Source of the DNA: a virus
Lineage: Duplodnaviria; Caudoviricetes
IMG/VR virus record: IMGVR_UViG_3300028591_000095
Coordinates: 1 to 64,000 of that record
Reading direction: 5' to 3' (one strand)
DNA length: 64,000 nt
The translations under genes and the position numbers were made by a program. The notes under the pieces are model-generated. The model was not told the DNA's origin. It ran no database searches and worked only from the letters and a program-made list of their open reading frames with translations. This document shows positions 4,516 to 54,656 of this stretch, piece by piece; the stretch's first letter is position 1; each line of letters begins with the position of its first letter.

Positions 4516-4557
4516 TTCCATATATACATTATTCTTATGAGCAATACGAAAGTATTG
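4516..4557 (+). promoter_or_regulatory. Putative early (virion RNAP) promoter followed by a GAAA-tetraloop hairpin
   Basis: TTCCATATATACATTATT then CAATAC-GAAA-GTATTG; the motif recurs at 9999, 40328 and 54599. Confidence 0.6.
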
Positions 4558-4585
4558 TATCATTATACGAAAGGAGATATGTTAA

Positions 4586-4759
4586 ATGAAAAACATATCA
4601 GATATTGTTGAGGCTGTAAAAGCCATCAGATCATTCGCAAAAACAATAAGTGAGAGTGAGGTTTCCAAAGAGGACATGGAGTCACTCGCAACTCTCTCAC
4701 CCACACTCAAAGAGGGTCTCGACAACATGAATGAGTGGATGAACGGAGGTGACAAGTAA
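4586..4759 (+). CDS. Small hypothetical early protein, 57 aa (not in ORF track)
   Basis: AAAGGAG RBS, ATG 4586, MKNISDIVEAVKAIRSFAK...WMNGGDK*; stop codon is 1 nt before the next ATG. Confidence 0.7.
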   Translation: MKNISDIVEAVKAIRSFAKTISESEVSKEDMESLATLSPTLKEGLDNMNEWMNGGDK

Positions 4760-4760
4760 T

Positions 4761-5585
4761 ATGTTAGATCTCAAAATCTACACTGAATTCGCTCAGAAGA
4801 TGAACGAATTCTCAGAAACCATGACACTCGCAGGTATCTCATTCGATGATCTCGCTAAGTTGGATGAGATCTGTCCGATCTCCAACGATTTACTCGTCAT
4901 CAAGAACTGGTGGAACGGAAAGTCAACCAAGACTGCTAAGACTGAGGCTAAACCCGAACCTAAGGTTGAAACTCCTAAAAAGGATACAAAGAAGAAAGAA
5001 ACTCGTGGTAAGCGTCCCTACAATAAGCTGACCAACGATAGGGCTGCAATAATCTCAGAGTACATAGCTACAAGACATAACGATGATACTTTTGAAGTTA
5101 CTGTTAAAGATTGTGCGGCTGAATTCAAGGAATCACCTAAGACAATTCAGCGTCTTCTTGAAAAGACCACGTTTGTTCCAATCACAGACCGATACTTTAA
5201 GGTGTGTTCAGGACGTATCGTTGCAGTTCTCACTGAGAAGAAGAATATCTTTGGATCAAACCAGTCTGACATCAAATTGATCAAAGACTTGTTAAAAGAC
5301 TGCAACTACAATGTCATATCAGCTATAACTGAGGATATGTCAGCTAACGACGTTGTTAAACTGGCAATGGTCAGACTTGCCATGTTCAAACACGGAGAGA
5401 TCGACAGCATTGGCGGTGGTGTCAAGGAAATCTTCATAATGGAAGCAATTGCCTCCAATAGAAGCGGAAATAACGACGCCATCATCAAGGCAGTCAACAA
5501 AAAGTACGGTGTGACTTGTACACCGGAACTGGTCTCCGCTGTTAGAACTGGCAGATCCCATAAGGAGATCTTTGCTAGATTCTAA
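4761..5585 (+). CDS. Hypothetical early protein, possibly DNA-binding (two HTH-like segments)
   Basis: Start moved to ATG 4761 behind GGAGGTG. Segments CAAEFKESPKTIQRLL and VNKKYGVTCTPELVSAVRTGRSHK resemble HTH modules; Lys-rich linker. Confidence 0.5.
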   Translation: MLDLKIYTEFAQKMNEFSETMTLAGISFDDLAKLDEICPISNDLLVIKNWWNGKSTKTAKTEAKPEPKVETPKKDTKKKETRGKRPYNKLTNDRAAIISEYIATRHNDDTFEVTVKDCAAEFKESPKTIQRLLEKTTFVPITDRYFKVCSGRIVAVLTEKKNIFGSNQSDIKLIKDLLKDCNYNVISAITEDMSANDVVKLAMVRLAMFKHGEIDSIGGGVKEIFIMEAIASNRSGNNDAIIKAVNKKYGVTCTPELVSAVRTGRSHKEIFARF

Positions 5586-5599
5586 AAGGAGCTGATAAA

Positions 5600-6832
5600 A
5601 TGGGAAAAGGTAAAAGGATCAGAGAACAAAGAAAGATAAAAGCTACTGAAAACACTCTTGATCTCAGTAAAACTTCAACACTGAAAATGCTTGGTAATAT
5701 TAGAGACACTAAGCAACAAGAGTTAGTGACTTTAATAGTGGCAAAACATATAAAGGATCATTTCGATGTATCTCATACACCATATGGTGAATATAACATA
5801 GAATTGTCATATGACACACGTCGTGACGATCTGAATAACCTAATAGACGCATTGCATGATGCTGGTATTTCTGAAGTTACATTTTCATATCCAAATGTAT
5901 CAGGAAATAATTTCTGTATTGAAGTTGAATCAGTTTCGGAAGATTATATCGACGATATAAACGATTCAGTTCCAAAGGCTGACATTATAATATCAGAAGA
6001 TAAATTATCCGAATTAAATAATAAATATGGTTTCACTCCAAAATATGATGGATATGACATGGTGACTAGATTATCTTATGATGATCTAATATTCGCTTCA
6101 TCAAACTGGGATTTTAAGATCAGAGTTATTGTCAACATAGAATCTACTAAAAATGAAATTCAATACATGAAACAACACAATGAAACCTGGGGTAGAATGA
6201 TTGTAGGCTATATAATAATATATGATAACATGGTGTCTGAGGATCCTGATGAATGGGATGTGGCAATGCCCATACATATATATGAGTCATTTAGAACTAG
6301 AAAACAGAGATATTATCAGTTCATCGCATCAGAGGATGATGGTATATTTTCTATATCAGATAAATTTGAAGTAAGAAGAAAATTCCGTCATAACATGATC
6401 CAGTTTGGGTCTGACAGATATACCATAACATCATTTAATCAAATGCTACTAATGTGGGAGAATATTGCCAAGGCTCTTAATGACCCTGAGATAAAAGAGA
6501 TCTGGGAAACCAAAGAAATAAAAATAAGTAACGACCCAAGCATCAAACGTTATTCTTCAAACAAGAAACCTCTTGAGAACATTAAGAGGATTTATATGTG
6601 TGAACACCAATCGACAGGTCGTGAAATCGAACGACACACGGACAAGTGGTACGTTCGAGGACATGAAGTTCACAGAAAGAACGGGAAAGTATTCTTTAGA
6701 AAAGGTTACTACAAAGGACCTGGTCGTGATGATAAAGATACTAAACCTGAACCAAGAAAGCGAGTCATTAATACATTCGGGAATACTCTGGACAAAGAGG
6801 ATCTCGATGATTTCTATAATCTTATTAAGTAA
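5600..6832 (+). CDS. Hypothetical phage protein with C-terminal VRGH...GK...YKG basic motif
   Basis: 410-aa ORF with AAAGGAG RBS; the WYVRGHEVHRKNGKVFFRKGYYKG motif is typical of uncharacterised phage proteins. Confidence 0.6.
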   Translation: MGKGKRIREQRKIKATENTLDLSKTSTLKMLGNIRDTKQQELVTLIVAKHIKDHFDVSHTPYGEYNIELSYDTRRDDLNNLIDALHDAGISEVTFSYPNVSGNNFCIEVESVSEDYIDDINDSVPKADIIISEDKLSELNNKYGFTPKYDGYDMVTRLSYDDLIFASSNWDFKIRVIVNIESTKNEIQYMKQHNETWGRMIVGYIIIYDNMVSEDPDEWDVAMPIHIYESFRTRKQRYYQFIASEDDGIFSISDKFEVRRKFRHNMIQFGSDRYTITSFNQMLLMWENIAKALNDPEIKEIWETKEIKISNDPSIKRYSSNKKPLENIKRIYMCEHQSTGREIERHTDKWYVRGHEVHRKNGKVFFRKGYYKGPGRDDKDTKPEPRKRVINTFGNTLDKEDLDDFYNLIK

Positions 6833-54029: not shown

Positions 54030-54073
54030 TATAGGAACACCCGCTTTCTTAAAATTTATAAAGGAGAATTATT

Positions 54074-54565
54074 ATGACTACAACAGAACTCATTTGCATC
54101 ATAATGTCATCAGTTAGTATCATCATCAATCTGACGATACTTATCAAAACATCGATTGTTCGTAAACAAACACTTGATGATTTCAATGATATAAAATTGT
54201 ATATGTATGAAATCATGCGTCGTGAATCCAATCTATCCTATATGTTTGATGACATGCATGAGAGCGTTGAATCTTTATCATCGGGTTTTGACAATGTCCA
54301 GAAGTCTTTTAACACAGCATTGAATGAAAAGATATGTATGAGACATTATCCATTACCAGATGAGATCCGACAGATTGAAGGTGTAATGGACGACCAGATC
54401 AATCAGATCATCGGACTTACAAAGAAACAACGCATTCCTAACAAAGATATGTATGAGACAATTATTACCAATTTATGTAAAACATTTCCAGATATCGATG
54501 TCGAATACATTGTTACAAAACTCACAGCATATCTTGAAGCTAGTGATATAATAAAACTTGAATAG
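54074..54565 (+). CDS. Membrane-anchored hypothetical protein
   Basis: N-terminal hydrophobic helix LICIIMSSVSIIINLTILI; AAAGGAG RBS. Confidence 0.6.
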   Translation: MTTTELICIIMSSVSIIINLTILIKTSIVRKQTLDDFNDIKLYMYEIMRRESNLSYMFDDMHESVESLSSGFDNVQKSFNTALNEKICMRHYPLPDEIRQIEGVMDDQINQIIGLTKKQRIPNKDMYETIITNLCKTFPDIDVEYIVTKLTAYLEASDIIKLE

Positions 54566-54566
54566 G

Positions 54567-54591
54567 ATAGTCGGGGTTAGTCCCCGACTAT
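54567..54591 (+). terminator. Terminator hairpin
   Basis: ATAGTCGGGG-TTAGT-CCCCGACTAT followed by T-rich sequence. Confidence 0.7.
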
Positions 54592-54598
54592 TCTTATA

Positions 54599-54656
54599 TT
54601 CTATATATACATTATTTTTATGAACAACCCAGGTGATAAATTTCATTTCGGTTGTT
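54599..54656 (+). promoter_or_regulatory. Putative early promoter plus 5' hairpin
   Basis: TTCTATATATACATTATT then AACAACC...GGTTGTT stem. Confidence 0.6.

Follow-up and report, generated by a model that had tools for sequence, protein, structure and literature searches.

Hairpins at the predicted start site of early messages in an uncultured AR9-related phage

Introduction

Why would a phage place near-identical promoters in front of different genes and follow each of them with a hairpin, when the hairpins have unrelated sequences? The question is raised by IMGVR_UViG_3300028591_000095, a single 166,640-bp virus contig (37% G+C) from an uncultured phage, with an estimated completeness of 62%, whose first 64 kb are referred to here as the window. 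The original prediction, made from the letters of the window, described four near-identical 18-mers at 4516, 9999, 40328 and 54599 on the plus strand, each followed within a few nucleotides by a stem-loop. It assigned the 18-mers to the phiKZ/AR9 type of early promoter, read by an RNA polymerase (RNAP) packaged in the virion, held that the hairpin is always present, and proposed two roles for it, protection of the 5' end against decay or a structural part in promoter recognition. Here we follow motif and hairpin across the whole contig, in related contigs and in control promoters of this phage, AR9 and phiKZ.

The early promoter motif

The pattern TTYNATATWYAYATYATT matches exactly at the four positions and nowhere else in the window, always on the plus strand. 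Shuffled sequence is expected to yield 0.01 matches and none of 100 shuffles reached four, confirming the copies originally described. The whole contig holds 11 exact and four one-mismatch copies. With a weight matrix built from the sites of the clade, 16 sites on the contig reach at least 24 bits while none scores between 12 and 24 bits, and all 16 are intergenic. The full motif extends from -32 to +1 and amounts to 33 bits, ATT..(N)..TTCNATATWYAYATYAT-N4-(R)(T/C)G, with the register ...ATATWYAYATYAT-6N-G in which the G is invariant, T or C occupies -1 and mostly a purine occupies -2. The genes behind it encode a topoisomerase, DNA polymerases, non-virion RNAP subunits and small proteins that lack a Pfam or PHROG match. 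A conserved AT-rich box near -10 is thus found in many copies upstream of early operons.

This arrangement closely resembles the AR9 early promoter, AAATATATATTAT-(6N)-G(+1), for which start sites have been mapped experimentally (Lavysh 2017, PMC5312081). In phiKZ and phiR1-37 the start likewise lies 6 nt past an AT-rich box (PMC5312081; reviewed in PMC7598289), and the phiKZ sequence itself contains TATATTAC-N5-T-G, the same layout as here. The motif of the present phage differs from this class in sequence and in its longer box, which is conserved from -32 and includes TTC at -23 to -21, as well as in the conservation of T at -1 and of a purine at -2.

Comparison with AR9 proteins by tblastn places homologues of both AR9 polymerase sets on the contig. 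The virion subunits are represented by g189 (beta, 107934-112220, minus strand) and g264 (92756-94696, minus strand), and the non-virion beta' subunits by g154 (12466-14535, plus strand) and g270 (124702-126090, minus strand). Rpb2_6 and Rpb1_2 matches in Pfam occur among the RNAP genes, so that split multisubunit virion and non-virion polymerases are both encoded by the phage. Both AR9-type DNA polymerase genes, a helicase and a topoisomerase are also present, and orthologues of g154 and g152 stand directly behind an early promoter, an arrangement shared with AR9. Owing to the AR9- and phiKZ-like layout and to the homologues of both polymerase sets, the assignment of the motif as an early promoter with a predicted +1 at the conserved G, as originally proposed, is well supported. 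We infer the position of +1 from AR9 and phiKZ, and by the same comparison the virion polymerase would be the reader of the promoter. A sigma-70 scanner is silent at the motif, and a host sigma-A promoter was rejected because the YATYAT at -12 to -7 is not accompanied by a -35 element and conservation runs from -13 to -32, as in AR9.

Megablast against known phages gave no match. The nearest homologues of its polymerases belong to Bacillus and Staphylococcus jumbo phages. Together with strong AAAGGAGG ribosome-binding sites and a Pfam dockerin domain (24.5 bits, 80819-80983, plus strand, within a 166-aa frame), which fits a cellulosome-bearing member of the Bacillota, this suggests that the host is probably a member of that phylum. 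PHROGs and Pfam assign no function to the small early genes, and Rfam gives no match at gathering score in the 64-kb window.

A stem-loop at the predicted start site

To locate the structure relative to the promoter, folding energy was calculated in a sliding 34-nt window across the 16 sites, and the 15 sites with at most one mismatch were compared with the genome background in a Mann-Whitney test. Over the 16 sites the mean energy is -7.7 kcal/mol when the sliding window starts at -1. In the test with 15 sites, a mean of -7.5 at this start differs highly significantly from the background of -3.25 (sd 2.57; p = 1e-6). Once the sliding window opens at +5 the mean rises to -3.4 and the signal is gone, while positions confined to the promoter mostly give about -1 to -2.5 kcal/mol. 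Folding of 60 nt against shuffles gives a mean z of only -1.7, as the downstream leader dilutes the signal. Genome-wide scanning and folding against controls hence confirm the association seen at the four loci and place the energy minimum at the predicted +1.

Structure is strong at 13 of the 15 scored sites and weak at two (10022 and 65694); at one of the strong sites a long-range stem of 10 bp closes 56 nt, ending directly ahead of the ribosome-binding site. Stems were sought from +1 onward in the 23 independent hairpin families, and with this restriction 17 of them begin exactly at G+1 and the others at +2 to +4. An alternative start at the purine at -2 was also examined; stems that reach back to -1 or -2 do not exceed the number expected by chance. 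From the other side, sites in relatives that carry AAAGGAGG at +2 bound how far downstream the start can lie. Given the predicted +1, the stem-loop therefore sits at the 5' end of the RNA or only a few nucleotides from it. This is further supported by whole-leader folds, in which the leading three nucleotides tend to be paired (mean unpaired probability 0.26) and the Shine-Dalgarno sequence is mostly free (0.66). The hairpins span 19 to 56 nt, with stems of 6-12 bp, loops of 3-38 nt and energies of about -4 to -14 kcal/mol; they are A/U-rich and share no conserved sequence.

Across all early leaders the initially transcribed stretch from +2 to +15 is about 75% purine (G-A-A-W-A-R-R...), which makes the 5' arm purine-rich and the 3' arm pyrimidine-rich. 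This bias may reflect a preference of the polymerase at initiation.

Evidence for a structure formed in RNA

Several features distinguish the hairpins from palindromes in DNA. Folding favours the sense over the antisense strand at 14 of 15 sites in this genome and at 58 sites versus 16 across the clade (p = 4e-9), and coding-sense control windows show no strand asymmetry. GNRA loops account for 8 of 13 distinct tetraloops, and G.U pairs are present in the stems. Compensatory changes are seen among orthologous and among paralogous leaders. In one family, with a GAGA loop throughout, the stem occurs as ACAAUAC/GUAUUGU, ACAGAUGC/GUAUUUGU and AUAGAUAU/GUAUCUAU, and 3 of 11 pairs covary; in the family of the long-range stem 4 of 16 pairs covary. 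For the 13-member GAAGAAAGAG family MAFFT and RNAalifold gave no consensus structure, because indels misaligned the sequences, and its members fold individually. Unrelated stems in 26 leader clusters, covariation, strand bias and GNRA loops are the signs of selection on RNA structure rather than on sequence, and this evidence points to a hairpin that acts in RNA.

Relatives and control promoters

A pattern scan of viral contigs recovered five related contigs of 23 kb to 231 kb; a sixth, G003, was left out as it duplicates part of another relative, G001. The five relatives add 64 sites, which together with those of this genome form 42 leader sequence clusters. A clear 5' hairpin is found in 26 of these clusters, with sequences that are unrelated to one another. 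Four clusters have a Shine-Dalgarno sequence at +1 to +3 (for example GAAAGGAGG..ATG, with a leader of 15-18 nt), and the remaining 12 have neither, or only a weak stem. Counted by site, about 60% of the promoters in the five related contigs are followed by a hairpin, and in the most distant relative, the 231-kb contig G002, the signal is much weaker (-4.5 vs -3.1). The claim that the hairpin always follows the motif thus nearly holds for the 15 scored sites of this genome, to which it has to be limited, and does not extend to the clade.

Within G002 the starts at 19768, 38417, 95626, 138757 and 203862 share the hairpin-less leader GAGGACAGUGAUAGRRAUG, which opens with a Shine-Dalgarno-like GAGGA at +1 and reaches an AUG at +17. 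A stop codon comes directly after this AUG in two copies, and a short reading frame in two others. This leader may represent a ribosome-binding stabiliser at the 5' end.

We then compared control promoters. Eleven leaders behind a late-type motif of the same phage fold at background level (-3.7, p = 0.40) and differ significantly from the early leaders (p = 0.0015). Hairpins are equally absent behind the early promoters of AR9 (34 sites, -1.5 vs a background of -2.07) and of phiKZ (24 sites, -2.28 vs -3.35, p = 0.98). In contrast to these two phages, the present phage opens all or nearly all of its early transcripts with a hairpin. The hairpin is therefore not a general part of promoter recognition by this polymerase family.

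The late-type motif itself, AACC-N6-TA-A, resembles the AR9 late promoter AACA-N6-TA/G, except that the fourth base is C here and A in AR9. It is found in the window at 4483-4495, 9969-9981, 23679-23691 and 39999-40011, all on the minus strand, and elsewhere on the contig it precedes the minus-strand genes that end at 94696, 102158, 113911 and 124626. From the motif to the start codons of the structural and virion-RNAP genes behind it the distance is 19-58 nt, and the motif often stands back-to-back with an early promoter, 8-11 nt apart. By count, AACC-N6-TAA is not enriched in the window (6 found, 7.4 expected), so that support for this candidate late promoter comes from its placement upstream of minus-strand genes.

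A possible role in protecting early messages

The best overall reading of these data, which we hold to be somewhat more probable than not, is that of a 5'-terminal protective stem-loop on the early messages of a virion-polymerase promoter. The 18-mer would then be the core of an early promoter of about 33 bp that is read by an injected, AR9-type multisubunit virion RNAP, and transcription would start at the invariant G, 6 nt past ...ATYAT. Nearly every early transcript would open with a short, moderately stable, A/U-rich stem-loop, and with the 5' arm at or within 3 nt of +1 the triphosphate end would be base-paired. The hairpin would be followed by an unstructured A/U-rich spacer, a free Shine-Dalgarno sequence and the start codon. 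In a Bacillota host such a hairpin could block 5'-end-dependent decay, that is, RppH-type removal of pyrophosphate and RNase J-type attack in the 5'-to-3' direction, and would prolong the life of messages that come from the small number of polymerase molecules entering with the DNA. As few polymerase molecules are presumably injected, each early message may be worth protecting. The stabilising effect is inferred from anatomy, since a flush 5' stem-loop, a single-stranded spacer and a free Shine-Dalgarno sequence are the parts of known stabilisers. The 5' Shine-Dalgarno sequence that stands in place of the hairpin in some relatives fits the same protective logic.

Of the two roles originally proposed for the hairpin, 5' protection fits best, considering the stem that runs from the predicted +1, the RNA-level evidence and the Shine-Dalgarno alternative. 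A structural role in promoter recognition is disfavoured by the absence of the hairpin from AR9, phiKZ and about one third of the same-core promoters in relatives, and is further weakened by loops of 3-38 nt and the bias of sense over antisense.

Several observations weigh against 5' protection nonetheless. Among the sites of the relatives, about 27% lack both a hairpin and a 5' Shine-Dalgarno sequence, so that protection cannot be obligatory. The host of AR9 has RNase J, yet the early messages of AR9 lack hairpins. A looser statistic, the best closed structure of at most 60 nt starting from -2 to +6, separates the sites from random positions only at p = 0.012; given its weakness it was replaced by the sliding 34-nt energy profile. 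Finally, several sites are paralogous cassettes, with the leaders at 4539, 67153 and 102241 forming one set and those at 106972 and 166389 another, which reduces the 16 sites to about 12 independent cases.

An alternative that we regard as unlikely is that the hairpin acts in transcription, as nascent RNA or as initially transcribed DNA, either helping a sigma-less virion polymerase to escape, through anti-backtracking or RNA displacement at a long and tightly bound promoter, or setting promoter strength. This would explain why the hairpin is strictly tied to one promoter class and begins at +1, and it would agree with the unusual length of the promoter and with the purine bias of the initial transcript, which suggests constraints at initiation. 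However, AR9 and phiKZ promoters of the same layout do without a hairpin, same-core promoters of relatives open with a Shine-Dalgarno sequence instead, and the spans are variable. Moreover, the 3' arm lies 15-55 nt downstream, so that the stem would form only after escape. An improbable further explanation is a flush 5' hairpin that serves as a recognition mark for a protein, such as a phage factor that sorts early phage messages from host RNA at host shut-off, recruits ribosomes or later silences the early class. A class-wide structure that is free of sequence conservation, the enrichment of GNRA loops and the reported lowering of host mRNA levels during AR9 infection (PMC5312081) are compatible with such a mark, but stem length, loop size and bulges vary widely, which suits a single binding protein poorly, no RNA-binding gene emerged as a candidate, and a third of the clade promoters lack the hairpin. 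It appears just as doubtful that the hairpin, beyond being a passive stabiliser, marks the messages of the virion polymerase as a class, to be read by a phage or host factor that tells early phage RNA from host RNA, for instance so as to spare it from a 5'-end-dependent host shut-off nuclease or to give it first access to ribosomes.

The N4 virion RNAP recognises a hairpin formed in DNA upstream of +1, in which a short stem carries a loop of 3 nt and some bases are conserved. A comparable DNA element in the present phage, with transcription starting downstream of the hairpin, is very unlikely. Both systems have an injected phage polymerase and an inverted repeat near the promoter, which here adjoins the conserved box. 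The hairpins of this phage are, on the other hand, located downstream of the predicted +1, their loops and their box-to-hairpin-end distance vary, and strand bias, G.U pairs and GNRA loops are signatures of RNA. In addition, +1 has been mapped at the equivalent G in AR9, and where AAAGGAGG directly follows the G in relatives the start cannot lie further downstream. We give the least credence to the absence of any selected function, i.e. chance palindromes or hitchhiking in duplicated promoter-leader cassettes. The paralogous leaders and the modest result of the looser statistic would be expected in that case, but not the hairpins in 26 of 42 independent leader clusters from six contigs, the compensatory changes, the sharply placed energy minimum and the flat profiles of late leaders, AR9 and phiKZ. 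Other identities were rejected. An intrinsic terminator or attenuator would require a GC-rich stem and a consistent U-tract, neither of which is seen in the leader hairpins, and the terminator scanner is silent at the leader hairpin of 54623-54656; stems of 6-12 bp are too short for an RNase III site; and a repressor operator does not agree with unrelated hairpin sequences.

Comparison with known systems

Stem-loops at the 5' terminus stabilise E. coli ompA and papA and B. subtilis aprE and ermC leaders, and Shine-Dalgarno sequences do so in cryIIIA (STAB-SD) and in the polypurine element of phage SP82 (all reviewed in PMC3997798). The hairpins described here share with the former group a location at the very 5' terminus that leaves few nucleotides or none unpaired, and a sequence that is free to vary, and the replacement of the hairpin by a 5'-proximal Shine-Dalgarno sequence in some relatives recalls the latter. 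While the classical stabilisers belong to single genes, a whole phage promoter class is concerned here, with the structure in a fixed position at a virion-polymerase promoter.

A second point of comparison is PeSL (promoter-early stem-loop) of the T4-type phages RB49 and phi1, which combines a sigma-70-like host promoter with a GC-rich stem-loop that acts as a terminator and is located upstream of the start site, within it or immediately ahead of it (Arbiol 2010, PMC2839356). Common to both are repeated early-promoter cassettes before small genes that lack an assigned function, near-identical promoter-leader units before unrelated genes, and GC-rich terminators that abut several promoters. In contrast to PeSL, the hairpin here is A/U-rich, is not terminator-like and lies in the transcript from +1, and the promoter has no -35 element and no call by the sigma-70 scanner.

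Our literature search found no paper on hairpins linked to the start sites of early promoters in jumbo phages. As such the mechanism is textbook knowledge, and the value of the finding therefore lies in the pattern and the comparison rather than in a new principle: a known mechanism in a promoter-coupled, class-wide form. What is added here is a class-wide, sequence-free hairpin in exact register with the predicted +1, with evidence at the level of RNA, together with its absence behind AR9, phiKZ and late-type promoters and the 5' Shine-Dalgarno alternative in relatives. If 5' protection is correct, there is a lineage of AR9-like giant phages in which a sequence-free hairpin, fused to the start site of the virion-polymerase promoter, hardens the entire class of early transcripts against 5'-end decay. 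In uncultured jumbo phages the hairpin could then serve to recognise the start site and the early class computationally, and the promoter-leader units (promoter, hairpin, spacer, ribosome-binding site) would form a natural set of 5' stabilisers for Bacillota, each a compact and portable module. The contrast with AR9 and phiKZ could also show when phages need such protection, for example with longer leaders or other host nucleases.

The four loci of the window

All four hairpins of the window occupy the places originally described, on the plus strand like their promoters, and three of them fold far better than shuffled sequence. Early promoter 1 (4507-4539, 37.8 bits) has the AR9 consensus-6N-G+1 layout with the predicted +1 at G4539. 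It is followed by the 5'-terminal hairpin GAGCAAUAC-GAAA-GUAUUGUAUC with a GNRA loop (4539-4561, -7.7 kcal/mol, z -4.15), for which compensatory changes are found among paralogues and orthologues. Downstream are AAAGGAG at 4570-4576 and an ATG at 4586. The promoter stands back-to-back with the late-type motif at 4483-4495 on the minus strand. Behind the early operon starting at 4539, and co-oriented with it, lies an amidase-type endolysin gene (6911-7723), which is preceded by a GC-rich terminator-like hairpin (6835-6910) and has no early motif of its own.

Early promoter 2 (9990-10022, 29.4 bits, predicted +1 at G10022) heads the topoisomerase II gene (10068-12437), followed by the non-virion RNAP beta' C-terminal subunit (12466-14535). 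Its hairpin, AACAGU-CAUGU-ACUGUU from +4 (10025-10041), is a weak 6-bp stem that alone is not significant (z 0.03). The stem is nevertheless kept in the relatives G001 and G004, with an altered loop in G001. Early promoter 3 (40319-40351, 30.0 bits, predicted +1 at G40351) precedes a gene for a 145-aa protein of no assigned function (40397-40834). The hairpin GAAU(A)GGAC-AGA-GUCCAUUC is flush with +1 (40351-40370, -6.9 kcal/mol, z -3.28), and its G001 orthologue pairs GGAUA with UAUCC, a compensatory change.

Early promoter 4 (54590-54622, 37.8 bits, predicted +1 at G54622) heads nine small co-oriented genes (54692-59129), none of which has a Pfam match. Its 5' hairpin AACAACC...GGUUGUU, which holds an inner stem, starts at +2 (54623-54656, -13.8 kcal/mol, z -4.35), with AAAGGAGG at 54676-54683 and an ATG at 54692. 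The promoter is adjoined by a GC-rich, terminator-like hairpin with a T-run that ends the upstream gene (54564-54594, plus strand, 13 pairs of which 7 are G-C). The terminator scanner calls this upstream element only and gives no call at the leader hairpin at 54623-54656.

Organization of promoter-leader units

GC-rich terminators with a CCCCGG-type stem and a T-run abut early promoters not only at 54564-54594 but also near 65.63, 67.09, 81.37, 98.89 and 142.49 kb, so that terminator, promoter, 5' hairpin and ribosome-binding site follow one another in a compact unit. Near-identical promoter-leader units of about 75 nt are found at 4507-4580, 67121-67195 and 102209-102283, where unrelated genes follow. 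They comprise a CAATAC-GNRA-GTATTG stem and then ACATTATA..GAAAGG, and variants in G001 carry compensatory stem changes. These units look like shuffled expression cassettes.

Two leaders of about 100 nt (106972-107077, plus strand; 166389-166292, minus strand) have a second hairpin with a CUAGUCA loop and more stems past the 5' hairpin, and the CUAGUCA loop is also present in leaders of G001 and G004. The sixteenth early promoter, with the core AACGATATATATATCATT and 27 bits, is followed by a structured leader of 172 nt (90008-90180, plus strand) before the next called gene; this leader may contain a hidden small gene or non-coding RNA.

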